A stretch of 64,000 nt of DNA from Thermoplasmatales archaeon (GCA_026127925.1 JAJSLM010000006.1:22302-86301); one strand, 5' to 3'; shown: positions 5,097-19,553, counted from the stretch's first letter. A program made the numbers and translations. The notes: generated from the letters alone by a model not told the origin.

Positions 5097-6389
5097 TTGA
5101 ATTTAAATTCTAAAGGCCTTTTGATGAACAACAAAACAATCATAGCGCTGAGATCGTTCATTGTTGCAGTTGGAGCAACTGCAGCTTCAGCGTTTGTCGG
5201 GGTTTATGGTGCATTCCTTGGAGCTTCCCCTGCAGAAATGGGCTGGCTTCAGTCCGCTGCAAACTCTGTTGGAAACGGAGCTCAGCTGTTCTGGGGGAGA
5301 ATGAGCGATAGATTCGGTGTGAGAAAATTCTTTCTGGTGGTCGGCGGAGCGATACTTGCCCTTCTGTGGTTTCTAATGGGAGTTGTAAAAACACCAGTTG
5401 AGCTGATTATCGCATATGGCGGAATATCCTTTTTCGGTTCCATGATCACAGTAAATTGGTTCTCGTTGATTGCCGAGCAGGCTGAATCATCCTCCAGAGG
5501 AAAATTTCTATCTATAGTGAACAATCTCGCATCAGTTGGAACAATCATTTCCCTACTCTTAATGTCCATTTTCTTCACTGGCAAGGTTACAAGTGAAATC
5601 AGGATACCTTTCTTTGTCGCTGCAGTATCATACCTGATCTCTATCATAGTTGTTGCACTTATAAGGGAGAAAAAGCACTCTTCGGTCTCGAAAAAAAGCC
5701 TACTAGAAACCATGAAAACCTTGAAGGGGGAGAAACTGTTCTACAGATATTTCCTGGCCATGAACATCCAGGGCTATTTCTGGTCCATGGCCTGGCCCCT
5801 TTTCCCATTAACGATCGTGGATCTGATGCACTTTAACCTTTCTGAGATTGCTTACCTTACTGTTGCTGCATCTGCGACAACTGTGTTTTTCCAATTCATG
5901 GTTGGAAGGATAACGGACAAAATCAATCGACCTCCACTTATATTCCTCAACCGAGTAATGCTCAGTCTGATTCCAATATTCTATGCATTCTTTCACAACT
6001 TCCAGGAGTTCATAATACTTGAACTCTACAGTGGAGGACTTAGTGCCCTTCAAAACGTAGTCATGAATTCCTACTTGCTTGATATAATTCCCGTTGACAG
6101 GAGGGGCGAATTCATATCCATCCTAAACGGATTCAACGGCTTAGTTTACCTGTTTGGTGCTCTAACGGGGGGTTATCTGCTCCAGGCGTTCATATCTTTC
6201 ATGCCTCTGGGTATATCGCTAACGATTGCTTATTTGATTATATTTTCGGGTAGATTCCTTTCCTCTTTCCTCTTCTACAGACTCAAAGAACCACAGGATA
6301 GAGGGAAGGGACCACTCTCGCTATTTCAATTGATTCTACGGCAAAAACCGGCTGGGAGTCCGTCAGGTGGAACAATTAAAGTACGATGA
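5097..6389 (+). CDS. MFS transporter
   Basis: About 12 hydrophobic segments, G-rich MFS loop (WGRMSDRFGVRK). Confidence 0.7.
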   Translation: MNLNSKGLLMNNKTIIALRSFIVAVGATAASAFVGVYGAFLGASPAEMGWLQSAANSVGNGAQLFWGRMSDRFGVRKFFLVVGGAILALLWFLMGVVKTPVELIIAYGGISFFGSMITVNWFSLIAEQAESSSRGKFLSIVNNLASVGTIISLLLMSIFFTGKVTSEIRIPFFVAAVSYLISIIVVALIREKKHSSVSKKSLLETMKTLKGEKLFYRYFLAMNIQGYFWSMAWPLFPLTIVDLMHFNLSEIAYLTVAASATTVFFQFMVGRITDKINRPPLIFLNRVMLSLIPIFYAFFHNFQEFIILELYSGGLSALQNVVMNSYLLDIIPVDRRGEFISILNGFNGLVYLFGALTGGYLLQAFISFMPLGISLTIAYLIIFSGRFLSSFLFYRLKEPQDRGKGPLSLFQLILRQKPAGSPSGGTIKVR

Positions 6390-6443
6390 ATTAACAACCA
6401 TTAAAGGGCCATATTGACAAATACGGCATCAATTGCTTTATTC

Positions 6444-6866
6444 TCACAGCTTTTTCTGATTCAGGAAGTTCTCGACCTTTTCAAGCAAATCTTTCTGCGT
6501 TAGATATCGGAGTTCCTTCATTGCGGTTTTGTAATCAAGCCACTTGAATCCGATATGTTCGCTGGAAATTCTGGGCTTAGACCCGTTATTCGCTTCTCCA
6601 ACGAATACTATGACTTTTTTATTTACTGTGACGCCGTTTGACTTGAAATGGTAGTTTATCATTTCTCTGAAGCCAGGCATAGGTTCTATTTCTAGACCAG
6701 ATTCTTCCCTGGTTTCTCTTTTTGCAGCGGTTATTTCGCTTTCGCCTTTTTCAATATGCCCTTTGGGAAAGTCCAAATAATCTTCGCCTTTTTTAAGGAA
6801 AAGATACTCCCTTTTATCATTAACCTCGCGAAAGACAAGTATTCCACTGCTTACTTCGTTCCTCAT
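6444..6866 (-). CDS. NUDIX hydrolase
   Basis: Canonical Nudix box GHIEKGESEITAAKRETREESGL. Confidence 0.85.
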   Translation of the reverse strand: MRNEVSSGILVFREVNDKREYLFLKKGEDYLDFPKGHIEKGESEITAAKRETREESGLEIEPMPGFREMINYHFKSNGVTVNKKVIVFVGEANNGSKPRISSEHIGFKWLDYKTAMKELRYLTQKDLLEKVENFLNQKKL

Positions 6867-6980
6867 ATGATAATTAATGACTTAACTTGTAATAAACAAT
6901 TGCTAGGTTATATTCGATTCTTGAAAATATTGTTGTGGCATTATATATATCGCAATAATTTTATTCCTACATTTTCTGAC

Positions 6981-8306
6981 TCAGGCTGATACCTCCTCCA
7001 GCGTCATCCGTGTAGCTTTTGCCCCACCAACTATTACGAGTATACCTGCAATAAGTCCAGTGACCGCTATGAATTCAAAACCAATAGAAAACGAATATGT
7101 TGCCACAAGAAATGGGAGAAATAATGCACCGAAAGCTCCGCCAAGGTGCCCAATCCCGTCAGTTAAAGCAAATCCAGAACTCCTTGCTCTCGTTGGATAA
7201 TTCTCAGCAGTGTACGTGTAAGCAACCTGCAGGTACATGCCTAAAGCCAGTGATGCCATGAACGATCCAACGAACACAGCATCAGTAGTTTTTAGTGAGA
7301 AGATTATCAATCCCACAAACCATACAACAGTATCAACGAATATTATGTATTTCCTCTCAAACTTATCAGCTACGGCAATCATAATGGCTGCACCAACGGG
7401 ATATCCGACAGCTCCGACCGCGAGAAACAGGATAGATGAAGCGATAGTGAATCCCGCACTGGATAGCATGGTAGCAGCATCGCCTAGAAACGCATAATTA
7501 CCGATGTACCAGAAGAACCAAACAAAGACTAATAGTGCAAGTCGGCTTGAATATGGTTTCTTAAACAGATATAGGGTTGGGTACTTTTGTTTTTCGATTA
7601 CAACATCGCTCAAGACAGGTTCAGGCAACTTTTTGACCTTTTTCAATGCAGTCCTTTCCATCAATTCAAGAACTTTTCTTGCCTTTGGGATATCTTTCTT
7701 CTTTGTTGCCAGCCACCTTGGTGATTCCGGAAGTTCGAACCTCAGAATAAGAGCCACAAAGGCGATTATGGCACCTATACCGAAAAGCCATCTCCATCCA
7801 GTATAGAACACAGGAACGAGTGAAAGTCCCACAAATGGCGTTATAGATTGACCGAGAATCCCAACAAGGAATGCCCAAACAGTTATTTTTCCCCTTATTG
7901 CTGGGGGTGCAAACTCGCTTATGTAAGTTGAAACTAAGTTAAGATCTGCTCCAAGGCCAAGCCCAGTTATGAATCTAAAGATAGTCAGTTCTGGCACGTT
8001 GACAGAAATAGCATCCCCGAATGAACCCAGCGCTGTCAGGCCCATGGTCAGAATCATGGAGCGATACCTTCCAAAAAGATCAGCTGTGCTTCCTATTATG
8101 TAGGAACCGATTCCGTACCCGATCAGGCCCACAGAGAGCGCTATGAAAAGACTCATGGACGTGCCTATGTGGAACTGGGCAGAAATGGCAGGCATTGCTA
8201 GTCCTATATCTGATATGTCATAGAATGTGAAAAAAATACCCCAATCCCAATATTGCAAGGAAAGAAGCAGGGAGCGACCAAACTGGGATTCTGTTGACTC
8301 TGGCAA
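6981..8306 (-). CDS. MFS transporter (sugar-porter-like, PESPRWL motif)
   Basis: LPESPRWL and GRYRS MFS motifs, 12 TM pattern. Confidence 0.75.
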   Translation of the reverse strand: MPESTESQFGRSLLLSLQYWDWGIFFTFYDISDIGLAMPAISAQFHIGTSMSLFIALSVGLIGYGIGSYIIGSTADLFGRYRSMILTMGLTALGSFGDAISVNVPELTIFRFITGLGLGADLNLVSTYISEFAPPAIRGKITVWAFLVGILGQSITPFVGLSLVPVFYTGWRWLFGIGAIIAFVALILRFELPESPRWLATKKKDIPKARKVLELMERTALKKVKKLPEPVLSDVVIEKQKYPTLYLFKKPYSSRLALLVFVWFFWYIGNYAFLGDAATMLSSAGFTIASSILFLAVGAVGYPVGAAIMIAVADKFERKYIIFVDTVVWFVGLIIFSLKTTDAVFVGSFMASLALGMYLQVAYTYTAENYPTRARSSGFALTDGIGHLGGAFGALFLPFLVATYSFSIGFEFIAVTGLIAGILVIVGGAKATRMTLEEVSA

Positions 8307-8541
8307 TTATATCCTTAATTTCGTCATCTTCACTTTGCATGCTGAAAGGGACGCGAGATTTCTATATGAATATATTGACTGATATATTAGCCTACTATAG
8401 TTTAAAGAATAAAACTAACATCTTTTTTTACGCAGGCTTATCGCATACTATCTGAAGAAAAGCCATGGGACTTTAGATAAATTGAATTGATTCGTTTAGG
8501 ATATTACTAATGGAAATTAATTATTAAAAAAAAGTTAAATA

Positions 8542-9804
8542 GTGATACGTCTTAACGTGCTAGAAAGTATCATGGATGGACAAAAGAGTGATATAACAGT
8601 AATAAAAGAGGCAAGTACTATTGGAGGGTTGTTGAAGGTAGTCATACCTGTCGCTCTTGGAATGTTCCTTGTTGGTTTTGACGCTAACCTTTTCTTCTTT
8701 GGTGGGACGTTTATTGTCAGTGCCATACATCTCAGCCCGAATTCGATTTACATTGGAATTGCTGGCTCAGGATTTGCAGCTGGAATAGCGATATTCAGCG
8801 TGATTGGTGGGTACATCTTCGACAAGATTACAACAAGGGATGGCATTCTTATTTCCTTGGCAATAATATCTCTTTTTTCCACACTTACGGGTTTTGTTAC
8901 TAATAAATACGAATTGGTTGCATACAGATTCTTGGTTGGTTTTGGTACAGGAATGATCCAGCCTGAAATAATTGCATTCCTAGGTGACATTCGGCCTAGA
9001 GCAAGGCAGACAGTCATTGCATCTGAAGGGATTGCCTTTGGTCTTGGGCTGTTCGTGTCGCCTTATATCTATTCCCGGTTTTCAACAGTCTCCACGTTTG
9101 ATATACCATTTATAATCGCTGGTGTGGCAGGAGTGGCCCTGATAGCTACTGTTGTTGCCCTTGTTCCATCAAAGTACAAATTGTACAAAAAACCGAAAGG
9201 AAACATCCTGGAGATCCTTAACAGTTCACTGATTCTCATATCCATTTCCTTCCTGTTTTTCGGCATCGCCTTCTTTGCTTTCGAGAGCTATTTCACTCCT
9301 TACCTAATCAACTTCGGCTTCACTGAAACTGAAGCTACTTTCATATACTCTTTCTTTGGTCTTGCATACCTGATCCTAGTTCTGCCAGGAGGAATCCTTG
9401 GAGACAGAGTGATGAGGAAACTTGTCCTGATTATTTCGGGGTCAGTCCTTGTGGTGAGCTCTCTTATACTATTCCTAAAGACCCCGATAGTGCTGACGGC
9501 GGCCATAGGCACAATACTCTTCGGTGCGGGGTACGGTATTTATTCCAACACTGCAGCATTTGCACAGGAAACTGTTGAAGACCAATGGAGAGGGTCAGCA
9601 GTTGGATTCATGTTTCTTATATTCAATGTTGGAACAATTATCGGATCAAGCCTGATGGGAGCTATGATAAAAATAGTCGGTTACTATTTAGCTGGAATTT
9701 ACGTACTCATAATTCCACTTGTGCTTTGCCTGTTGTTCATTGTGGCCACTCCAAGGCCCTCCCATAACCTTTCGGAGGTTTCTGGTACGTCTGAAGAAGC
9801 ATAA
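8542..9804 (+). CDS. MFS transporter
   Basis: Polytopic membrane protein with MFS-like D/R-rich loops. Confidence 0.6.
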   Translation: MIRLNVLESIMDGQKSDITVIKEASTIGGLLKVVIPVALGMFLVGFDANLFFFGGTFIVSAIHLSPNSIYIGIAGSGFAAGIAIFSVIGGYIFDKITTRDGILISLAIISLFSTLTGFVTNKYELVAYRFLVGFGTGMIQPEIIAFLGDIRPRARQTVIASEGIAFGLGLFVSPYIYSRFSTVSTFDIPFIIAGVAGVALIATVVALVPSKYKLYKKPKGNILEILNSSLILISISFLFFGIAFFAFESYFTPYLINFGFTETEATFIYSFFGLAYLILVLPGGILGDRVMRKLVLIISGSVLVVSSLILFLKTPIVLTAAIGTILFGAGYGIYSNTAAFAQETVEDQWRGSAVGFMFLIFNVGTIIGSSLMGAMIKIVGYYLAGIYVLIIPLVLCLLFIVATPRPSHNLSEVSGTSEEA

Positions 9805-9917
9805 CAAAAATTCTCTCACGTTTTTTAATTAACTTTCAGAATACAAAATGTTTATCTCTCTCGTATTGAATACTACCTGAATAAAAGTTGAGTGCTTGAT
9901 TCAGGTGATACAGAAAA

Positions 9918-11144
9918 ATGATTCATAATCGCAGGACATCAGCAGAGAAAATATTTTCACGTGTAACCGGCAAAGACGTAACGGCGGGAGACTTTGTTTG
10001 GGCAAGTCCCGATCTGGTCTATCTTCACGATGTCCTTGGGCCAATGACAATTGAGAGTATGAAGCGGATAGACAATGGGAATGTGAGATTTGCTGGGCAG
10101 ATCGTTGTAGTTAATGATCACATTTTCCCACCAAAGGATGTTGCCAGTTCAAACAACGAGAAAAATCTTGTCGAATTTGCAAAAAATAGAGGCTGGACAG
10201 TTATCCCATGGGGTGAAGGGATCGAGCACACCCTCCTGATTGAGAATGGGATTATTCTACCCGGGATGCTTGTTGCGGGAACAGATTCTCATACTGTTAC
10301 TGCTGGCGCGGTTGGCGCAATGGGTATCGGTCTCGGTTCTACAGATATGGCCGCACTCATTTCAATCGGTAAATTGTGGTTCAAAGTTCCAGAAACTATT
10401 CTAGTTAGAGTGCATGGTAAAAGGGGTAAGTTCGTAACCGGAAAAGATGTAGTTTTAAAAATTCTATCTATCCTCGGGACAAACGGGGCAAATTACAAAT
10501 CAATAGAGGTAAGGCTTGATAAGGAATGCGACATGTCCCAGGACGACAACCTCGCCATAGCGAACATGACCGTTGAGGCTGGAGCGAAGACATCCATTAT
10601 CATGAACGAGGCTCTACACAATCTCGGCGCTGATGTTATTTCTGATTACGGATCGGATTACGAAGAACTGGATCTAGGAATGGAAGGAATGGTTCCACTT
10701 ATTGCAGCACCGTATTCACCTGGTAACGTAAAGCCAGTTGTGGACTATGAGGGAACAGATGTCGATCAGGTTTACATTGGAAACTGTTCAAACGGCACAC
10801 TCTCAGACATGAGAGAAACAGCAAAAATTTTAAAGGGGAATCGTGTGAAAAGCGGAGTTAAATTGATTATTGTTCCTGCTACAAGGAACATTTATAAACA
10901 TGCTCTAGAAGAAGGTCTTATAGGAATCTTCGTGGAATCAGGTGCAACGGTCGCTCCTCCAACTTGTGGAGCGTGTGCAGGTTTGCATATGGGCGTCTTG
11001 GCGAAAGATGAAGTATGCATAACGAACATAAACAGGAATTTTAGGGGGAGAATGGGCGATCCCACCAGTAAGGTATATATTGCAAATTCTTATGTTGCTG
11101 CGGCAAGTGCAATTTCAGGCAAGATAACTGTACCGGGTGAGTGA
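9918..11144 (+). CDS. leuC: Aconitase-family dehydratase large subunit (3-isopropylmalate dehydratase/homoaconitase LeuC/HacA type)
   Basis: GTDSHT motif and CGACAG Fe-S ligands; ~410 aa archaeal-type large subunit. Confidence 0.8.
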   Translation: MIHNRRTSAEKIFSRVTGKDVTAGDFVWASPDLVYLHDVLGPMTIESMKRIDNGNVRFAGQIVVVNDHIFPPKDVASSNNEKNLVEFAKNRGWTVIPWGEGIEHTLLIENGIILPGMLVAGTDSHTVTAGAVGAMGIGLGSTDMAALISIGKLWFKVPETILVRVHGKRGKFVTGKDVVLKILSILGTNGANYKSIEVRLDKECDMSQDDNLAIANMTVEAGAKTSIIMNEALHNLGADVISDYGSDYEELDLGMEGMVPLIAAPYSPGNVKPVVDYEGTDVDQVYIGNCSNGTLSDMRETAKILKGNRVKSGVKLIIVPATRNIYKHALEEGLIGIFVESGATVAPPTCGACAGLHMGVLAKDEVCITNINRNFRGRMGDPTSKVYIANSYVAAASAISGKITVPGE

Positions 11145-11649
11145 AATGGCAAGAATATTTCTGTTTGGAAATAACATTGATACAGACGTTATTGCGCCTG
11201 GCGGCTACTTGCATTTGCCTCTAGAGTCGCAAAAGGTTCACTGCTTTGAATCCATTTACCCGAACTTTTCGAAGCAGGTAAAAAGGGACGATATCATAAT
11301 AGCTGGGGAAAACTTTGGATCAGGATCATCTCGGGAACAGGCCCCAGCCCTGCTCAGGGAAATAGGAATAGGCGGGGTATTTGCAAAAAGTTTTTCGAGG
11401 CTTTTCTTCAGAAACGCTATTAATGTTGGGCTATTCGTAGGTACATATAATTTCGATACGTTATTCAGTGATTGTGACGAGGTAACAGTATCATTCGAGG
11501 ACGAGGAAATCCGTTCGCAGAATTCGGTGTTGCATTTCACCTCGCCGTCTGGTATACCAAGGGATATACTGATGGCTGGAGGTATGATCAACTTCGCTAA
11601 AAAAGTGATACAAAATGGAAGTGTGAATCGGGATAAGTTAACAGAATAA
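11137..11649 (+). CDS. leuD: Aconitase-family dehydratase small subunit (LeuD/HacB type)
   Basis: Starts right after the large subunit with a small overlap; GENFGSGSSREQA swivel-domain motif. Confidence 0.8.
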   Translation: MSEMARIFLFGNNIDTDVIAPGGYLHLPLESQKVHCFESIYPNFSKQVKRDDIIIAGENFGSGSSREQAPALLREIGIGGVFAKSFSRLFFRNAINVGLFVGTYNFDTLFSDCDEVTVSFEDEEIRSQNSVLHFTSPSGIPRDILMAGGMINFAKKVIQNGSVNRDKLTE

Positions 11650-11675
11650 AAAAGTGTTAAAAATTAGGAAAGGTC

Positions 11676-13046
11676 CTAATTTGCAATCTGCTCAACAAAT
11701 CTCCTTGTGCTTTTTGGACCCAGCAGTATTAGAACTAGGGAAACTATGACAACCAGAATCCACACAAACGTGAATATGCCAGGTGCGTTTTTGGCGCCTA
11801 TGAAAAATACAATAAACAGGACAAGAATTGTTGTTGAGATCCTGCTTATAGAATAGACGAACCCGGCTGCTGTGGTTCTGACCCTTGTAGGGAAGATCTC
11901 TGCGTTATATTGATGCATGAAGTTCGAGAAGTTCCACAGCATGAAAGCTGTTAGGAATCCAAAGATGACTGCTTCATCTAGCCCATGAATTATAGCAAAG
12001 AATGTTCCGAAAACTCCACCAAGGATGGCGAACATTATAATACCCCACTTTCTTTCTATTTTGTCTATAATGAAAATATTGAACACGCTTCCTACCAGGA
12101 AACCAGAGAATATCACCGCTGCAGCTCCTAATGGATCGCTCTTGGGATACGCTACTACGACCAATCCTGGGGCAAACGTGACGAATCCATAAAATATGCC
12201 AGACTGGAAAAACATAAAAATCGCCATCATTATAGTGGTCTTTCTCACGTCCTTTGCAAATATGTCCTTATATTTAGAAACCTGAATCGGGGTCTCAAGA
12301 GTGTCCGTAACAGGTGGGAGTTCTTTTAACCCGGTACTCTTCTTTACCTCATCTTCTATCTTGTCCATCATCTTTTCGGCTTCTTTCATCTTTCCATGAT
12401 TCGCCAGCCATCTCGGGGATTCCTTTAATCTGAATCTTACCAACCAGACAATTATCCCTGATATCCCCATGATCCAGAGTGGTATCCTGAAAGAGTAATA
12501 TGGGATACTGGCGGTCAGTGATGTGATGTATATTATCAAGGGTGCAGATGTAACCGCTATGGTATAGATCAGGGCAAGCCACGCTCCCCTGTTTTTTCCA
12601 GTGAAAACTTCAGTTCCATAACTGTCTACCAGTGGGAACTCCCCTCCAACTCCTATACCGCCTATCAATACGAATATTGCAACAAGTTGCCAATCGGTCA
12701 TGAATCCGGCAATAATCATTCCAAGACCGAATAACAATTGATTGATCAGGAACACTGCCCTTCTTCCTCTGGTATCTGCAAGCCTTCCGAATAGAATGGA
12801 ACCTATGAACTCGCCAACAAAGAAGAATGCCGGAAGTGCATATGTGGACAAATCTCCGGTTAAGGCAAAAGCTGTTGCAACAAGCCCAAGAATAGCTCCA
12901 TTTCCAAGCAACATTAAGCTCTCAGCCCACTCTCCGCTTGTAAGCATAAGAGCAAATTTTACATGAAAACTGCTACGCGGTAATCGTTCTAGCCTTCCTG
13001 CAATATTTTCAGGATCGTACCTAGGGTCTACCATATTAAGATGCAC
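11676..13046 (-). CDS. MFS transporter (metabolite:H+ symporter-like)
   Basis: GRLADTRGRR and LKESPRWL motifs, 12 TM. Confidence 0.75.
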   Translation of the reverse strand: MHLNMVDPRYDPENIAGRLERLPRSSFHVKFALMLTSGEWAESLMLLGNGAILGLVATAFALTGDLSTYALPAFFFVGEFIGSILFGRLADTRGRRAVFLINQLLFGLGMIIAGFMTDWQLVAIFVLIGGIGVGGEFPLVDSYGTEVFTGKNRGAWLALIYTIAVTSAPLIIYITSLTASIPYYSFRIPLWIMGISGIIVWLVRFRLKESPRWLANHGKMKEAEKMMDKIEDEVKKSTGLKELPPVTDTLETPIQVSKYKDIFAKDVRKTTIMMAIFMFFQSGIFYGFVTFAPGLVVVAYPKSDPLGAAAVIFSGFLVGSVFNIFIIDKIERKWGIIMFAILGGVFGTFFAIIHGLDEAVIFGFLTAFMLWNFSNFMHQYNAEIFPTRVRTTAAGFVYSISRISTTILVLFIVFFIGAKNAPGIFTFVWILVVIVSLVLILLGPKSTRRFVEQIAN

Positions 13047-13184
13047 TAGTTAGAAATATTTAAAGTTACCTTGTAACAGGTTAAAGTTTTACTCAGAATA
13101 TTTTGACCGTTGAGACATTTATTTTCCCACTGATAAAATTGCCAACGAAAAAGTTAGGCGAGGCTGTGTTACAGCAATGAATAA

Positions 13185-13838
13185 TTAATTTCCCAAGAAC
13201 TTCTGTAAAATCTTCCTCTCTCCATTTCTCAGGTGATACAGCACGCTGGTCTTAGAAGCGCCCACGGAATTTGATATCTTTGAAAGCTGTGCTGTCCTTG
13301 GCCACGAGTAATAGCCGGCAGAATAGGCAATTCTAAGAATCTTCCATTCCACAGGGGTAATATTAGCCAAAGGGTAATAGTGTAATATATTGAAAGAACT
13401 CAACAGAATGTTTTCATCATTTATTCGATCGTAATTCATTGTCTCGATCTTGTTGCCAGACTTTAAGACATTCTTTTCCACTGTTTCAATGCCTTCCAGA
13501 TCCTTGACAACGTATCCGAAGTTTTCGGTCCCATTTTTTGCTATCACGGGCATTAACAATAATCCACTCCCTTCCGATATGGCTGAGATCATCCCATGAC
13601 CTTTCTTTTCTCCGTATATGAAAACAGCTCTCTTCATTTTTGAAATATGGATATCAAGAAAATCCTTGGATAAATCATGCCTCATGGAATCCTTGTTCTT
13701 ATCATCACTGAAGGCAAATACCATATTTTTCCCATTTGATCTGTGGTTTACAGAAGTTGTTATTATACTGCTTTCAGAAGAATCTGCAGCTAGTGTCAAA
13801 CCGCACTGGCTTACAATTGTTAGGTTAACCAGGAGCAT
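13185..13838 (-). CDS. Transcriptional regulator with C-terminal Bat-type HTH_10 domain
   Basis: C-terminal TPVEWKILRIAYSAGYYSWPRTAQLSKISNSVGASKTSVLYHLRNGERKIL resembles the bacterio-opsin-activator HTH. Confidence 0.6.
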   Translation of the reverse strand: MLLVNLTIVSQCGLTLAADSSESSIITTSVNHRSNGKNMVFAFSDDKNKDSMRHDLSKDFLDIHISKMKRAVFIYGEKKGHGMISAISEGSGLLLMPVIAKNGTENFGYVVKDLEGIETVEKNVLKSGNKIETMNYDRINDENILLSSFNILHYYPLANITPVEWKILRIAYSAGYYSWPRTAQLSKISNSVGASKTSVLYHLRNGERKILQKFLGN

Positions 13839-13912
13839 AGTACTCTAATGGAAGCAACAAATAAAGATTTTCTATATTTTATATATTTTAATTCGTCATT
13901 TGCCGATGTAAT

Positions 13913-15076
13913 TCAAAGTAAAGTACTTATTTTTCTTAGATGATCAATTTTTTCCTGTGAGTAACCTAATGACTTAAGCACGGCATCAGTGTCCGCCCCT
14001 AAATCTGGTACCATGCCAGTATATTCATTTCCGTATACTGGAGTCGCAGGTACTCTTAGTATTTTCCCATCGTAATCAACTCTGACAAACTTGTCCTTTG
14101 CCTGATCGTCTTCCAGAAGCTCCCATGGTTTCTTAAGCATGGAGAAAACGATGTTGTTTTTTTCAAGAACTTCTATGACGTCTGAAGAATTGAGGCGCTT
14201 GATATTTTCAGCTATCCTTGGTATCAGAGTATCTCTGTTGAGGTATCTGCCATCATTGTGTTCGTAAATCCTTTCGGCGCAAAACCCCATGTTAAAGGAA
14301 AGGCAGAACTTCTTCCACTGATTATCTGTTGTTACCGCGATAAATATCTTTTTCCCATCCTTTGTATTAAAAAAGTCATAAATTCCCCAAGCAAACCCAC
14401 TCTCATTAATAGGATCGAGCTCTTTTCCTAGCATCTCTTCGGTCACGATGTGCTGCCCAACAAGGAACATAGCAGTTTCGAATAAACCGATTTCTATCTT
14501 TTTTGCTTCGTCACTTCCCCCCCTCTTAGAAAGAGCATCTAGAGCACCTACAACTCCAAATAGGGCAGAAGAGATGTCAACAACTGAGGCACCGACCCTA
14601 AGCGGGCGGTTCTTCAGGCCGTTCATGAAGGCCATACCACTATGCACTTCTATGGGGTAGTCAAGGGATTTTCTGTTCTGAAGCGGACCAGGGCCGTATC
14701 CATGTATTGATACGTAAATCAGATTATGCCGTATTTTTTTAAGATCCTTGAAGCCGAGTCCGAGAGAATCCATGGTACCGTTGCTAAGGTTGTCTATCAA
14801 GATATCCGAAGTCCTAACGATATCCTTGAACGCCTCCTTTCCCTCAGGCATCTTCAGATCTATAGCCACACTTTTTTTGTTCCTATTGAACGTTGGAAAA
14901 GCACCCTTACTTGATCCTTCTAACTTTCGAGCTATGTCTCCACCGTCAGGGTTTTCTATTTTTATTACCTCGTGCCCAAGATCTGCAAGAATTAGGCCTG
15001 CAGTTGGTCCAGCTACAATGTGACCAACTTCAATTACTCTTACCGTAAATGTCACCCCACATCTTTTTAAGTTCAA
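13913..15076 (-). CDS. Family III CoA-transferase (CaiB/BaiF/formyl-CoA transferase family)
   Basis: N-terminal VIEVGHIVAGPTAGLILADLGHEVIKIENP motif; the true start is probably internal, because the ORF overlaps the upstream gene by 47 nt. Confidence 0.75.
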   Translation of the reverse strand: MNLKRCGVTFTVRVIEVGHIVAGPTAGLILADLGHEVIKIENPDGGDIARKLEGSSKGAFPTFNRNKKSVAIDLKMPEGKEAFKDIVRTSDILIDNLSNGTMDSLGLGFKDLKKIRHNLIYVSIHGYGPGPLQNRKSLDYPIEVHSGMAFMNGLKNRPLRVGASVVDISSALFGVVGALDALSKRGGSDEAKKIEIGLFETAMFLVGQHIVTEEMLGKELDPINESGFAWGIYDFFNTKDGKKIFIAVTTDNQWKKFCLSFNMGFCAERIYEHNDGRYLNRDTLIPRIAENIKRLNSSDVIEVLEKNNIVFSMLKKPWELLEDDQAKDKFVRVDYDGKILRVPATPVYGNEYTGMVPDLGADTDAVLKSLGYSQEKIDHLRKISTLL

Positions 15077-16079
15077 TCAATGAGATCGGCTTCCCAGATT
15101 CAACGGATCTCCCCTTTGCAAGATCCATTAGTACCTTGAGTTTTCCCTCATCCACGGCAAGACCCTCTGACCTCAATATATTCTTTAACATGTTACGTCC
15201 CGTGTATACGTTAACCGAAAAGTTTTTTCCCACAAAAACATCGCCAAATGCTGCATGTGTGCCAGCGGTGTGGATCTTTACATTTTTTCCATACATCGGG
15301 AAATTGTCAGCAAAAAAACCTATTCCGATCTTTTCCACAATTAACGCTTTTAAATAATCATAGACGGCCATAAGCTTAGGCATTATTATACCTGTTGGAA
15401 CATTCATTGAAGATAGAATTGAAACCAGTGAGGCCGTGTCTGATATGCCGTTTCTTTCACCTATTCCAAATATAGTTGTATCAACATGATCCGCTCCTGC
15501 CTCGATCCCGGCCAGTGCATTTGCTATCGAGCTCCCAGAGTCGTTGTGACAGTGAACTTCAATCTCTGCATCCGTTATTCCTCTTACGAAATTAACAACC
15601 CTCCGTATCTTTTCCGGTGTTCCCTTTCCCATGGTATCTGGTAACTGTATTACGTCTGCACCGTTTTCCCTAAGCCCCCTAACAAGCTTTTCAATGTCTT
15701 CCAGAGAAAAATCTATAACGTCTACAATTGCAACTTCTACTTTTTTCCCGCTGTTAGAGGCGTACTTAACGGCATCATATACGCTACTTATGTCGTCGAT
15801 CTTGAATGGAAGATGCAGGGCTATATTTGCCCCTGTACGGAGAATTGTGTCAACATCTCCTCTGGTTGTACGACCAAGGGCAAACACTTCGTTAAATATG
15901 TTCTGTTCAACAATTTTTTTTGTTACAGCAACCTCACTTTCGTGCGCCGAAGGGTATGAAACAAGCGCGCTCTTAATTCCAGCCTCCTTCAGAAGCGACG
16001 CCAATTTTAGTTTCTCTTCAATTGTGAAAGCCATTCCAGGGGCCTGTAAGCCTTCCCTGAGGGTATCATCTTTAATCAT
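15030..16079 (-). CDS. DRE-TIM metallolyase (HMG-CoA lyase / citramalate-isopropylmalate synthase catalytic-domain-like) without a regulatory domain
   Basis: N-terminal DDTLREGLQ (DTxLRDGxQ-type) motif and HxH metal-site motif (EVHCHND); 349 aa. Confidence 0.7.
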   Translation of the reverse strand: MIKDDTLREGLQAPGMAFTIEEKLKLASLLKEAGIKSALVSYPSAHESEVAVTKKIVEQNIFNEVFALGRTTRGDVDTILRTGANIALHLPFKIDDISSVYDAVKYASNSGKKVEVAIVDVIDFSLEDIEKLVRGLRENGADVIQLPDTMGKGTPEKIRRVVNFVRGITDAEIEVHCHNDSGSSIANALAGIEAGADHVDTTIFGIGERNGISDTASLVSILSSMNVPTGIIMPKLMAVYDYLKALIVEKIGIGFFADNFPMYGKNVKIHTAGTHAAFGDVFVGKNFSVNVYTGRNMLKNILRSEGLAVDEGKLKVLMDLAKGRSVESGKPISLIELKKMWGDIYGKSN

Positions 16080-16135
16080 TGCAGGAATAACAACGCATAG
16101 GATTATTTGAAGTAGGCATATAATGTGTTAAAGTT

Positions 16136-17278
16136 TTACGGTCCGCCAGCATCCATCAGTAACGCAAGGACATCAATATTTTTAGCTGCTGTTTTTCTAA
16201 AGATCTCACTCACAGAGATTTCACTAAGTTCGATACCAGAAAGGCACTCCATAAAGCTTTCAAATGCAGTCTCTCTACTCTCCATGATTGTCTTGGTCAA
16301 TAAGTGTGAAAGCCTGTCCTCCTCCGTTAATCTCTTCTCAATTCGGCCTTCATACTTTCTGATTTTGCTGTTATTTTCTGTTCCCTGGCTTTCCACAATG
16401 AAATCAGCAGCAGCCATTGCTGTGGAGAATGCTTCATTGTACGATGTGAAAAAGAAGTGGTTGAAAAGTCCAGAAGCTAATCCTATGTTGAGGAATCTTC
16501 CGTTTCCGTAATCGATGTTTTGCAACGCCATAATTTTTTCACTCCCAGAGGTTACGCTATTTTCATAAAGTTCGCTTCTCTCTTTAACCATATCCACTGA
16601 GTCAACCGAAACATAGTTGATCCATTTTTTCGCTACGGGCATCTGATATTCTATTATCCTTGGATCGCCGGTACCCACGTGAATAGTGGGCTTTTGATTT
16701 TCTGTAGAATAGGCCTCTCTCTTGTACATGAAGTAAAAGTTGTCGAATTCTGCTGCATTGTGATAGCCGCTATTCAGTAGCAATGGTTTTATTCCACCTG
16801 TGGCATTTATAACATAATCCGCCTGTATGTTTCGGTACTTTCCCATCTTCAAGACGTGTAGGCCGTAACCATCTTTTTCCTTCAGGATATCTTTGACCTC
16901 TGATCTTATCTCAATTGCTGCTCCTTCTTCAACTGCAAGACTTGCCAGTTCCTTCTGGAATCTATCTCCAGCTATGACAGCATTGAAAACATCTTTTTCT
17001 GGCGTAGAATGCATGTAAAACGATGCCCCAGATTTATCAGAAGCAAAAGTTATTTCATTAATGTGGTCAAGTAATATGTTATCTGCGTTTACTCCTGTTT
17101 CCGTTAGCAACCTTGAATTTATGAGATCTGAGCACATGTCGGGAGCACCGATCTCAATTCTTTTGTCAAGCACAATCACTTTCAGGCCGTTTTCACTCAG
17201 CTTCCTAGCGGCTAAAGTGCCGGATGGGCCACCACCTATAATGGCAACATCGTATCTGGAATTTCCATTCTCTCCCAT
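16136..17278 (-). CDS. Geranylgeranyl-reductase-family FAD-dependent oxidoreductase
   Basis: YDVAIIGGGPSGTLAARKLSENGLKVIVLDK FAD-binding motif. Confidence 0.75.
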   Translation of the reverse strand: MGENGNSRYDVAIIGGGPSGTLAARKLSENGLKVIVLDKRIEIGAPDMCSDLINSRLLTETGVNADNILLDHINEITFASDKSGASFYMHSTPEKDVFNAVIAGDRFQKELASLAVEEGAAIEIRSEVKDILKEKDGYGLHVLKMGKYRNIQADYVINATGGIKPLLLNSGYHNAAEFDNFYFMYKREAYSTENQKPTIHVGTGDPRIIEYQMPVAKKWINYVSVDSVDMVKERSELYENSVTSGSEKIMALQNIDYGNGRFLNIGLASGLFNHFFFTSYNEAFSTAMAAADFIVESQGTENNSKIRKYEGRIEKRLTEEDRLSHLLTKTIMESRETAFESFMECLSGIELSEISVSEIFRKTAAKNIDVLALLMDAGGP

Positions 17279-17476
17279 GTGTAGGTCCTGATTGATAGTT
17301 TCATTAAAAGCATGACTGTTCGACTCTAAAACAAAAGAAGCGGTATTACGCTTAAATCTTTTTCAAATATTTGTAGCGTTCGGGGCTAAATGGAATGTTC
17401 ATAAAGGTTGGTGTTGACGTAAGGTTATCATCGGCAAATTTTAAATAAAATCTCGGATACGTGAGAGGACATTAAT

Positions 17477-18922
17477 ATGAAAGACAGCTATGATTACGAT
17501 ATTGTGGTCGCTGGCGGGGGACTATCAGGTACCGTTGCAGCGGCAATGGCAGCTAAAGCTGGTTTGAAGGTAATAATTCTTGACAGGAATGATCAAGATA
17601 ATGTGGGCCGAAAGACAATTTCCGGGTGGATATGTGGAGATGCTGTGGCCGGTTCTCATATAGATTATATAACAAGGAAGCTCGGGGTTTCTTTCGGAAA
17701 ACCTGAACTGGACAGGGAAGTCGACGGCGTCTATGCCATATCACCAGATCTCTCCACTCGCTTCAAGTTTGATGGCGTTGGATATACCCTTGATAGGCCA
17801 GAGTTCGAAACTAAGCTTTTGAACATAGCTCTTAAAGCCGGTGCTGATTACAAACCCCAGTTCGAAGTAGACGGCCCATTAATTGAATCAAACAGGATCG
17901 TTGGCGTGTATGGGCGAGACAAGGATAAAAACGAGATTAAGTTTCACTCAAAGGTAGTCATCGATGCCTTAGGTGTATCGACTGTCATCAGGAGGAAACT
18001 TCCAGAAAATCCATATGTCGATAGAACCGTAGATATAGACGATCTGGAGTATACTGGCCGTTACATCTATGAATTCGAGCTTGATCATACAGATCTGAGT
18101 TACTACGATCCGGATAACGCTCTGATCCACTTAAACAACGAAATTGCACCTGGAGGTTATGGCTGGGTCTTTCCTAAGAGCGACAACAAGATCAACATAG
18201 GTCTAGGCGTCCAGAAAACAAGCCTGGAGATAAGAAACAAAGCTATGGGGCGCTCTGACAATCTTCAGAGCCTTATTGATCAGTACGTGAAATGGAATCC
18301 AGTATTCAAGAACCTGAAATTGTTCAACAAGAACAACAACGGTAAGGGAAACTGGTCCGTTGCCGTTAGAAGGCAGATGGAATCGCTTGTCTACGAAGGT
18401 TATCTCGGTGCCGGGGACAGCATGGTAATGCCCAACCCTATAAGCGCAGGCGGTATAGGCCCTGCACTCATTTCAGGGGTTCTGGCTGGAGAGAATGCAG
18501 CTCTCGCTGTAGAGAGCAGAGATACAAGCGTAAAAGCAATGTGGAAATATAACCTTGAGTTCAATGAAGCATATGGAAAGAAAACCGCTGGAATGGAGAT
18601 ATTCAGGATATACCTGCAGTCTCTTAACAACAAGGTCCTCAACTATGGAATGAATAAGTTTCTTACTACAAAGGAAGCTTCTGACATAACACTGGGTCTT
18701 GTTCCCGAACTTAGTCTTGCATCAAAGTTCAAGTTTGTCCTCAAGGGAGCAAGCAACATTAATGCTTTCAGAAACCTTGTTTTCGTCATGTCAAAAATGA
18801 AGGAAATGAACGCCATATACGAGAACTACCCGAAGAGTCCTGATGAGTTTATATCCTTTAAAAGCAGGGTAAAAGAAAACATAGAGGACGCGAAGACCAG
18901 GTTCAAGCCTAACCCCGTTTAG
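17477..18922 (+). CDS. Geranylgeranyl-reductase-family FAD-dependent oxidoreductase (long paralog, 481 aa)
   Basis: YDIVVAGGGLSGTVAAAMAAKAGLKVIILDR FAD motif; divergently transcribed from the other GGR-like gene. Confidence 0.75.
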   Translation: MKDSYDYDIVVAGGGLSGTVAAAMAAKAGLKVIILDRNDQDNVGRKTISGWICGDAVAGSHIDYITRKLGVSFGKPELDREVDGVYAISPDLSTRFKFDGVGYTLDRPEFETKLLNIALKAGADYKPQFEVDGPLIESNRIVGVYGRDKDKNEIKFHSKVVIDALGVSTVIRRKLPENPYVDRTVDIDDLEYTGRYIYEFELDHTDLSYYDPDNALIHLNNEIAPGGYGWVFPKSDNKINIGLGVQKTSLEIRNKAMGRSDNLQSLIDQYVKWNPVFKNLKLFNKNNNGKGNWSVAVRRQMESLVYEGYLGAGDSMVMPNPISAGGIGPALISGVLAGENAALAVESRDTSVKAMWKYNLEFNEAYGKKTAGMEIFRIYLQSLNNKVLNYGMNKFLTTKEASDITLGLVPELSLASKFKFVLKGASNINAFRNLVFVMSKMKEMNAIYENYPKSPDEFISFKSRVKENIEDAKTRFKPNPV

Positions 18923-19553
18923 TCCCGCTATAATATTCACAATATTTGTTTATCCTGCATTTTTTGCATAACGGATGCACTGGCTTGCAAATAGTTTTTC
19001 CGAATTCCACCATTGTAGGGTTGAACCCAATCCACATTTTTTTTGGCACTATCTTTTCGAGAATACGTTCGGTTTCCTCTGGGTCAGATGATCTTGACCA
19101 CCCTACTCTGACGCTTATTCTCTGAACATGAGTGTCTACGGCTATGGCCGGAATTGACATGGAGTCCGAGAGAACAACATTTGCGGTCTTCCTGCCCACT
19201 CCCGGTATCCTGGTCATGTCTTCAAGGTTTTTCGGAACCTTTCCTCCAAATTCATTTACAATTAAGCGTGCAGCATTTATTATTCTCCCCGATTTAACAT
19301 TGCTGAATCCGACTCTTGCTATCAGTTCCTTTACGTCATTGACATCTGCACTGCTCAGGTTTTCTGCAGTTCTGTATTTGTTGTAGAGGCCCCTTGCAGC
19401 GGCATCTGTAACCTCATCCTTCGTCCTGTGCGAAAGCATTGTTGTGATAAGAACCCAGAATGGATCTCTGAATTCAAAATGATGAGGTGGACTCATCTTT
19501 CTTATTTCCTTGTATATTCGTGGAAACGTTTCAATTGCTTTTTTCCTGTTCAA
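18909..19553 (-). CDS. nth: Endonuclease III (HhH-GPD DNA glycosylase with 4Fe-4S cluster)
   Basis: HhH-GPD region (GVGRKTANVV) and C-terminal CKPVHPLCKKCRINKYC cluster loop. Confidence 0.85.
   Translation of the reverse strand: MNRKKAIETFPRIYKEIRKMSPPHHFEFRDPFWVLITTMLSHRTKDEVTDAAARGLYNKYRTAENLSSADVNDVKELIARVGFSNVKSGRIINAARLIVNEFGGKVPKNLEDMTRIPGVGRKTANVVLSDSMSIPAIAVDTHVQRISVRVGWSRSSDPEETERILEKIVPKKMWIGFNPTMVEFGKTICKPVHPLCKKCRINKYCEYYSGTKRG

Follow-up and report, generated by a model that had tools for sequence, protein, structure and literature searches.

A candidate organic-acid catabolic regulon of acidophilic archaea built around a CoA-transferase and a divergent DRE-TIM enzyme

A 64,000-nucleotide stretch from the metagenome-assembled genome (MAG) of a Thermoplasmatales archaeon (GCA_026127925.1, JAJSLM010000006.1:22302-86301; this whole stretch is the window, and positions are counted from its first letter) carries at 13185-18922 five genes that an initial annotation had read as one module: two flavoproteins of the geranylgeranyl reductase (GGR) family, a DRE-TIM enzyme, a family III CoA-transferase and a Bat-type regulator. 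Comparison with related loci divides this region into two units. The first, from about 9.9 to 16.13 kb, has a somewhat better than even chance of being a substrate-inducible regulon for organic-acid catabolism in acidophilic archaea. It contains the DRE-TIM enzyme, the CoA-transferase and the regulator, together with two partners that lie outside the interval first described, an MFS transporter (11676-13034) and a LeuCD-like hydro-lyase (9918-11649). The second unit (16136-18922) consists of a conserved GGR paralogue beside a fast-evolving GGR derivative without the GD motif. The genes were called from a six-frame list of open reading frames (ORFs) and domains were assigned with Pfam and NCBIfam, which reproduced the five ORFs with their coordinates, their domain assignments and the lack of a regulatory domain in the DRE-TIM protein (349 amino acids, aa; PF00682). 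Four of the window's proteins are identical to the NCBI entries MCW6170788, MCW6170790, MCW6170791 and MCW6170792, also from a Thermoplasmatales archaeon MAG. The features are as follows.

15030-16079, minus strand: HMGL-like DRE-TIM enzyme, 349 aa, without regulatory domain (PF00682, 158 bits)
13913-15076, minus strand: family III (CaiB/BaiF) CoA-transferase, 387 aa (PF02515, 281 bits)
13185-13838, minus strand: HTH_10 transcription regulator, 217 aa (PF04967, 57.8 bits, residues 160-211)
11676-13034, minus strand: MFS transporter, Sugar_tr or metabolite:H+ symporter-like (PF00083 and PF07690)
9918-11649, plus strand: LeuCD/homoaconitase-type hydro-lyase (large subunit 9918-11144, small subunit 11137-11649)
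16121-16130, minus-strand reading: palindromic operator TAACACATTA, 42-51 nt upstream of the DRE-TIM ATG
about 16102-16111: TATA-like box TTCAAATAAT, following the DRE-TIM operator
13074-13083, minus-strand reading: second operator copy TAACCTGTTA, starting 49 nt upstream of the MFS ATG at 13034
after the second (MFS) operator copy: TATA-like box CTTTAAATATTT
16136-17278, minus strand: 380-aa FAD protein, a divergent GGR-derived flavoprotein (profile match to TaGGR, 3oz2)
17477-18922, plus strand: 481-aa GGR-family reductase (PF22578 GGR_cat)

A scan at one genome per species yielded 69 loci, which were compared by tblastn and by clustering of the neighbouring ORFs; the survey set comprised the 62 non-redundant loci with a DRE-TIM orthologue of at least 38% identity. 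These orthologues are about 345 aa long and occur at 45-57% identity throughout the Thermoplasmatales. The CoA-transferase gene was found directly adjacent to the DRE-TIM gene and on the same strand in 59 of the 62 loci, which belong to three archaeal phyla, and the order of the two genes was inverted in only two of the 59; this adjacency is far beyond chance. The pair is also coupled at the level of its reading frames. The likely start of the window's CoA-transferase is GTG 15055 or TTG 15076, and with either the ORF overlaps the DRE-TIM stop, by 26 or 47 nt respectively, as the initial annotation had seen. The genes of the pair overlap likewise in Thermoplasma volcanium, Ferroplasma and Oxyplasma, and orthologous loci repeat either the overlap or a 4-nt coupling. 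An HTH_10 orthologue was present in 49 loci (within 3 kb in 43) and an MFS orthologue in 43, whereas one or other flavoprotein was seen in three, all of them the window's closest relatives. Conservation of the neighbourhood across archaea, which had been put forward as a check on the module, thus extends to the enzyme pair and the regulator but not to the flavoproteins.

The same arrangement was seen in three complete genomes, those of T. volcanium GSS1, a Ferroplasma and Oxyplasma meridianum, where the DRE-TIM gene is followed by an overlapping CoA_transf_3 gene with a Sugar_tr MFS gene and an HTH_10 gene nearby, and where no flavoprotein gene is present at the module; in T. volcanium the pair lies around 0.96 Mb of BA000011 (L001). 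Further carriers are Acidiplasma, Cuniculiplasma and many Thermoplasmata MAGs, as well as Caldisphaera, Thermocladium, Acidilobaceae and some Nitrososphaeria MAGs, a set that we take to consist mainly of acidophiles. The survey supports reading the DRE-TIM enzyme and the CoA-transferase as partners in function, conserved and tightly coupled, with the HTH_10 regulator belonging to the same unit.

When the sequences preceding the DRE-TIM genes were aligned, a palindrome, TAAYNNRTTA, became apparent; it is often set within CTAAC-NN-GTTAG, and a TATA-like box comes about 10 nt after it. The background rate of this motif is one per 5.2 kb. In 35 of 59 loci a copy lies in the 150 nt before the DRE-TIM gene, the starts clustering between -46 and -52; for the MFS gene the figure is 33 of 49 loci over the same distance, with a peak between -47 and -50. 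Only one of 60 CoA-transferase genes was preceded by it, as expected for an internal gene of an operon, and copies upstream of HTH_10 genes and of the TcuA genes described below occurred only at positions consistent with shared divergent regions. The evidence for an operator is its positional conservation across loci. In the window, the copy 49 nt upstream of ATG 13034 makes this codon, and not GTG 13046, the likely start of the transporter. Since the positioned operator and TATA box are shared, the DRE-TIM/CoA-transferase operon and the MFS gene would form a regulon with promoters of their own, and that such a regulon exists we consider highly probable. The factor binding the palindrome may well be the adjacent HTH_10 protein, and the location of the site just upstream of the TATA box would imply activation.

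The regulator itself was described as Bat-type in the initial annotation. Its HTH_10 domain is clear, but neither of the GAF and PAS domains of Bat-type proteins was detected, HTH_10 being the only domain found at E<=0.01. The N-terminal portion of about 155 aa matched no Pfam family and, in a profile search, no PDB chain, and is likely to be a new ligand-sensing domain. Residues C12, D59, K78, H81, P97, G103, E105 and N129 are invariant in it.

Apart from the two promoter copies, exact TAAYNNRTTA sequences lie inside the DRE-TIM gene (15186-15195) and the 380-aa gene (17072-17081), by chance or as internal sites; four of the eight copies in the window fall within 13-17 kb. The window also holds four MFS genes inside 8 kb (5097-13034), at 5097-6389, 6981-8306, 8542-9804 and 11676-13034, a cluster resembling a solute-uptake island in which only the last gene carries the module operator.

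The idea that all five genes serve one pathway, in which a flavin-dependent reduction of enoates or isoprenoids would act together with the cleavage of C-C bonds and the transfer of CoA on lipid or isoprenoid side chains with the 380-aa gene leading the operon, was suggested by their physical adjacency and by the gap of just 56 nt between the 380-aa gene and the co-oriented DRE-TIM gene, which is found in the window and its closest relatives. This gap, however, contains the conserved operator (16121-16130) and a TATA box downstream of the stop codon of the 380-aa gene, which for that reason is not the head of the operon. The flavoproteins are missing from 59 of the 62 module loci. Conversely, two loci (L007 and L008) show the flavoprotein pair in the same arrangement as the window, aminotransferase-DUF6159-carA-carB-nth-GGR481(-)/FAD383(+), and there the next genes are MFS transporters, with no DRE-TIM, CoA-transferase or HTH_10 gene. 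The 380-aa protein also diverges much faster than the rest: its identity is 40% where that of the DRE-TIM protein is 73% and that of the 481-aa protein 87%, and with a dN/dS of 0.23 it is the fastest-evolving gene of the neighbourhood (0.014-0.14 for the neighbours and at most 0.07 for the two module enzymes), its ratio being put at 3-16 times theirs. Its distant relatives adjoin SRP54, the sole neighbour seen on contigs of 1.4-2.4 kb. Comparative context has thus largely refuted the single five-gene pathway, to which we assign a very low probability, and we are confident that the flavoproteins are separate from the module and merely adjacent to it in the window's lineage. Of the two kinds of pathway offered in the initial annotation, lipid/isoprenoid and organic-acid-CoA, the second was the better guess.

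The paralogy of the two flavoproteins was also qualified by the analysis, although the 198-nt divergent region between their genes was found as described (17279-17476). By BLASTP the two proteins share only a 31-residue Rossmann match. The 481-aa protein is a GGR-family member by its GGR_cat domain (PF22578, 53.8 bits against a cutoff of 27) and a borderline one by TIGR02032 (150.5 against 158.8); it scores 331 bits with NF041080 (cutoff 580) and carries GGYGWVFP and GAGD motifs, which we read as the YxWxFP and GD motifs presumed typical of GGR. Its top 120 homologues across the Thermoplasmatales are 61-88% identical and about 480 aa long, and it appears to be a conserved GGR paralogue of housekeeping type. 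Among the homologues with 61-65% identity, some are assigned to MAGs of Micrarchaeota and Marsarchaeota, which could reflect gene transfer between co-occurring acidophiles or cross-contamination in binning. The 3' end of the 481-aa gene is overlapped by 14 nt by the convergent nth (endonuclease III) gene at 18909-19553 (minus strand), as is also the case in L007 and L009. The 380-aa protein is related to GGR only at the profile level (TaGGR 3oz2, E=1.7e-23, residues 8-161 and 261-371), over the N-terminal FAD domain and the C-terminal helices, and no GGR_cat domain was detected in it. Its family keeps Cys49, has GLASG in place of VGDAA, all 20 members lacking the Asp of the GD motif, and has lost YxWxFP. 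A word-indexed search found three clusters of homologues, and exhaustive HMMER among 1.84 billion proteins revealed a small family of 21 cluster representatives at E<=1e-30. Neither flavoprotein reached the cutoff of the Thermoplasmatales GGR equivalog NF041160 (103 and 71 bits against 780), and the AF2 model of the 380-aa protein from a three-sequence alignment (pLDDT 33.7) was unusable.

For the first unit, we propose that the MFS symporter would import a hydroxy di- or tricarboxylic acid, that the family III CoA-transferase would move CoA from succinyl-CoA or acetyl-CoA onto the imported 2-hydroxy acid, and that the translationally coupled DRE-TIM enzyme would split the resulting 2-substituted malyl-CoA by retro-Claisen cleavage into acetyl-CoA and a 2-oxoacid. 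Candidate substrates of the last step are citramalyl-CoA, giving pyruvate, and citryl-CoA, giving oxaloacetate, and the acetyl-CoA formed could serve again as CoA donor. The HTH_10 protein would control both the enzyme operon and the transporter gene through the TAAYNNRTTA element upstream of each TATA box. Where present, the LeuCD-like hydro-lyase could feed the pathway by hydrating cis-unsaturated acids, and TcuA and TcuB by dehydrogenating saturated ones. We favour transfer followed by cleavage at slightly better than even; the choice of any single substrate, citramalate-like or citrate-like, is much less secure, each being unlikely when taken by itself.

The CoA-transferase belongs to family III by its full-length match to PF02515 (281 bits, profile positions 4-366) and by the presumed catalytic residue D167, conserved in at least 95% of 58 orthologues. 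In the alignment (query 12-207, chain 8-209) D167 falls at the position of Asp169, which we take to be the catalytic residue of Frc. Its relatives in the PDB are Frc, SUGCT and YfdE, and dicarboxylates are the substrates of its nearest relatives overall (SUGCT, YfdE, Frc and the succinate-glutarate and succinyl-CoA:mesaconate transferases). None of seven NCBIfam equivalog cutoffs was reached, the best score being 172 against 750 for succinate-glutarate CoA-transferase and another being 139 against 700, and by these scores the protein falls under none of the named specificities (Frc, YfdE, SUGCT-like, mesaconate, carnitine).

The DRE-TIM protein is a superfamily member in which the usual active-site landmarks persist, R8 in 60 and H176 and H178 in all of 61 orthologues. 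Among NCBIfam equivalogs it scored 164 bits for isopropylmalate synthase (IPMS; cutoff 517), 157 for homocitrate synthase (HCS; 414), 95 for citramalate synthase (450) and 58 for HMG-CoA lyase (HMGL; PRK05692, 246), so no synthase or HMGL cutoff was reached. With the family profile the best PDB match was SaHCS (6ktq, 1.1e-46), and homocitrate synthases and IPMS ranked first. The AF2 model (pLDDT 89.9) has an HCS/IPMS-like fold as predicted: in Foldseek all top matches were DRE-TIM proteins, HCS, methylthioalkylmalate synthase (MAMS) and IPMS coming first, then DmpG-type aldolases and then HMGL. A study of MAMS (PMC11532901) served as catalytic reference for the 61 orthologues, with the following correspondence.

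MAMS Arg89/Asp90/Gln93: R8/E9/Q12, kept
MAMS Thr257: T149, kept
MAMS His288/His290: H176/H178, kept
MAMS His388 (general base): H275, kept in 61 of 61 orthologues
MAMS Glu227: V or I at 119, replaced in 57 of 61 orthologues

In MAMS the Glu227-Tyr399-His388 arrangement is needed for synthase activity, and the E227A and E227D mutants are inactive (PMC11532901). The archaeal family keeps the His of this Claisen arrangement and has replaced the Glu; the segment of the stacking Tyr is shortened, and the uncertain equivalent of this residue is F, Y or M at position 287. The assignment of Glu227 to position 119 was checked by spacing, as both residues lie exactly 30 positions before the Thr of the DT motif. 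Two further glutamates, present in all four PDB synthases aligned, are lost as well: that of 'GEQ', which is L or M at position 11, and that of 'iEaG' in beta2, which is Leu (or I/M/V) at position 39. About 59 of the 61 orthologues read L/M11, L39 and V119 at the three synthase positions. Because its equivalog scores are far below cutoff and its conserved catalytic glutamates are replaced, the view that the protein is not an ordinary isopropylmalate or citramalate synthase, which the initial annotation had staked its reading on, is supported by sequence comparison. The enzyme appears to descend from homocitrate/isopropylmalate-type synthases and to have lost the glutamates that support synthesis, and we propose that it may act as a 2-substituted-malyl-CoA lyase.

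Its Pfam family is HMGL-like, and the CoA-transferase matches human SUGCT (9br6, 2.2e-33). HMG-CoA is a central precursor of archaeal lipids. The two enzymes might therefore be a SUGCT and an HMG-CoA lyase analogue, turning 3-hydroxy-3-methylglutarate (HMG) into HMG-CoA and this into acetoacetate and acetyl-CoA, as in leucine catabolism or HMG salvage, or passing HMG-CoA into the mevalonate pathway. The HMGL equivalog score given above is a small fraction of its cutoff, and HMGL structures in the PDB align to residues 127-253 only and rank below HCS, IPMS and DmpG. The loop after beta8 reads GIGERNG, as in HCS, with no Cys, so the catalytic Cys loop that we take to mark HMGL is absent. LeuCD-like and TcuA neighbours would have no role in HMG metabolism. 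We consider the HMG route quite improbable.

Both subunits of the LeuCD-like hydro-lyase adjoin the module in 21 of the 62 loci, about a third, including those of Oxyplasma, Thermocladium, Acidilobaceae and Nitrososphaeria MAGs, and in the window they score 460 bits with NF001614 and 151 bits with TIGR02087. The small subunit has a conserved loop, 'APGGYLH-L', in which one residue is deleted; it is shared by the window (11137-11649) and 25 related loci and is unlike what we take to be the loops of isopropylmalate isomerase and homoaconitase. In the crenarchaeal versions, L058 and L060, the loops are of the more canonical 'RYL(T/M)' type. Among the clustered neighbouring ORFs of the loci, no isopropylmalate- or isocitrate-type dehydrogenase was recurrent. 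On account of the unusual loop and of the missing dehydrogenase, the hydro-lyase is probably dedicated to the module and is not a biosynthetic LeuCD. TcuA was found in 14 of 68 loci, counted before dereplication (571 bits against a cutoff of 369 for the equivalog NF006130), and TcuB-like genes in 11. Both adjoin the DRE-TIM/CoA-transferase module in Oxyplasma meridianum (CP133772, 3659-6080; L004/L052), and Tcu neighbours were seen also in L016, L020, L022, L026, L038 and L053, usually together with LeuCD-like genes. Neither TcuA nor TcuB is present in the window. The presence of these neighbours suggests that saturated tri- or dicarboxylates may be funnelled into the pathway.

The main competitor of the catabolic proposal is the opposite, condensing direction, in which the transferase would make an unusual acyl-CoA from the imported acid or recycle CoA and the DRE-TIM enzyme would condense an acyl-CoA with a 2-oxoacid. 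The pathway could be of methylcitrate or citramalate type, or else a 'synthase' that conserves CoA, the transferase standing in for hydrolysis of the thioester, and the LeuCD-like enzyme would isomerise the product. The closest DRE-TIM relatives in fold and in sequence, all of them Claisen synthases, speak for such a direction, as do the intact 2-oxoacid/metal site with its general base His275 and the co-location of LeuCD-like genes in 21 loci. It is opposed by the loss of the Glu227 equivalent, which MAMS needs for synthesis, and of the two other conserved glutamates, by the missing dehydrogenase among recurrent neighbours, and by co-regulation with a transporter and a dedicated regulator, which is typical of catabolism. 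Moreover, T. volcanium and Ferroplasma carry the pair without a hydro-lyase nearby. On this evidence condensation is unlikely, the HMG route and the single five-gene pathway being less likely still.

Several observations weigh against the proposed catabolic regulon with a lyase at its centre. The lyase direction is drawn from context (transporter, regulator and coupled CoA-transferase) and from the lost synthase residues, and no positive lyase signature accompanies these in the sequence; the HCS-like, Cys-free GIGERNG loop belongs here too. Retention of H275 and of the whole 2-oxoacid/metal site is compatible with condensing activity. The clues to the substrate conflict: the TcuA equivalog points to tricarboxylates, while an IPMS-like pocket (L68, E115, A/G/S117, P147) points to a non-carboxylate side chain. 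Because of this conflict the pocket residues, compared with what we take to be the corresponding LiCMS and MtIPMS positions, do not single out a substrate. As for regulation, the strict operator pattern is missing from about 40% of the DRE-TIM promoters, and the motif is not enriched over the window as a whole (8 copies, 6.3 expected). It precedes the LeuCD-like genes in only one of 19 cases, so that these are linked to the module by position only.

The distribution of the DRE-TIM family provided some further observations. In Thermogymnomonas acidicola JCM 13583 (L076, 10001-14305) the DRE-TIM, CoA-transferase, HTH_10 and MFS genes are each split into several frames, through pseudogenisation or through frameshift errors in a draft assembly. 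Bacterial homologues of 28-33% identity occur in Desulfobacterales MAGs (L070-L075) and have similar N-terminal motifs, TLREGMQ or TIREGMQ and YP(P/S)AH. No CoA-transferase neighbour was found at these six loci, which gave no functional lead; one of the genes adjoins others resembling subunits of 2-oxoacid:ferredoxin oxidoreductase, as judged on N-terminal sequences. They may be a related clade with a different use.

In acid mine drainage and acidic hot springs the main heterotrophic scavengers are acidophilic archaea, Thermoplasmatales among them, and little is known about which organic acids they take out or by what means. The analysis defines a compact, widely conserved and unstudied regulon of transporter, CoA-transferase, lyase-like DRE-TIM enzyme, regulator and operator, and its occurrence in the cultivated T. 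volcanium, Ferroplasma, Acidiplasma, Cuniculiplasma and Oxyplasma makes it directly testable. Annotations like '2-isopropylmalate synthase' or 'hypothetical protein', which many genomes carry, are corrected by it as well. To our knowledge, the operator-regulator pair predicted here is one of only a few for HTH_10 proteins outside the haloarchaea. A Claisen-synthase scaffold that keeps the metal/2-oxoacid site and the base while losing its glutamates may show how synthases and lyases interconvert in the DRE-TIM superfamily. More speculatively, and with the balance somewhat against it, the 349-aa protein might found an unrecognised class of acyl-CoA lyases evolved from HCS/IPMS-type Claisen synthases, forming with the CoA-transferase an ATP-independent, CoA-based 'citramalate/citrate lyase' specific to acidophilic archaea, under a new HTH_10 sensor-regulator and its palindromic operator. 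If true, these organisms would thereby be able to consume organic acids that are toxic when the pH is low.

A literature search, limited to one library, returned nothing relevant on the module, on tricarballylate in Thermoplasmatales or on CaiB together with isopropylmalate synthase. For the flavoprotein unit, the 481-aa protein resembles TaGGR (3oz2) and SaGGR (3atq) in its GGR catalytic domain and the 380-aa protein in its N-terminal FAD fold and conserved Cys, but the 380-aa family, unlike both, is without the GD-motif Asp and the GGR_cat domain. The DRE-TIM enzyme shares with the Claisen synthases of its superfamily (homocitrate, isopropylmalate, citramalate, methylthioalkylmalate and Re-citrate) the fold of TIM barrel plus C-terminal subdomain, the Arg/Gln active-site helix, the HxH metal site, the Thr for the 2-oxoacid carboxylate and the general-base His. 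It differs from them in the change of the glutamates to Leu/Met, Leu and Val, in the shortened stacking-Tyr segment, in the lack of a regulatory domain, in equivalog scores far below cutoff and in the obligatory coupling of its gene to a CoA-transferase. The likeness to TcuRABC of Salmonella lies in the TcuA, TcuB-like and MFS genes found with the module in 11-14 related loci, that of Oxyplasma meridianum being one; unlike there, TcuA and TcuB are absent from the window, and in Salmonella cis-aconitate, the product, passes straight into the TCA cycle and is not known to need a CoA-transferase or lyase step. In the bacterial citrate and citramalate lyase complexes the hydroxy acid first receives a thioester by transfer and is then split into an acetyl-thioester and a 2-oxoacid, and since the acetyl-thioester can be reused as donor, no ATP is presumably needed. 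The archaeal proposal would share this chemical logic by analogy, but those enzymes belong to unrelated families (CitF/CitE/ACP), whereas the archaeal system would use free CoA esters.

The closest parallel would be in Chloroflexus aurantiacus, where the transferase and lyase genes are, as we understand it, adjacent. There, (R)-citramalyl-CoA lyase (EC 4.1.3.46) has succinyl-CoA:(R)-citramalate CoA-transferase (EC 2.8.3.20) as its partner (PMC8307300), and the pair, as described where it is cited (Friedmann et al. 2007, in PMC3832036), converts a free 2-hydroxy dicarboxylate to acetyl-CoA and a 2-oxoacid. By analogy, the archaeal loci would likewise pair a family III CoA-transferase with a DRE-TIM (HMGL-like) acyl-CoA lyase, the two genes lying side by side in 59 of 62. 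Unlike in Chloroflexus, the archaeal lyase candidate has its closest relatives in the HCS/IPMS/MAMS synthase subgroup and not among the HMG-CoA lyases, and the unit comes with an HTH_10 regulator, an MFS importer and an operator of its own. The logic of a CoA-transferase and an acyl-CoA lyase acting on hydroxy acids is thus known; what would be new is a lyase candidate from the Claisen-synthase branch that has lost its glutamates, under its own HTH_10 regulator and operator, in a system confined to acidophilic archaea.

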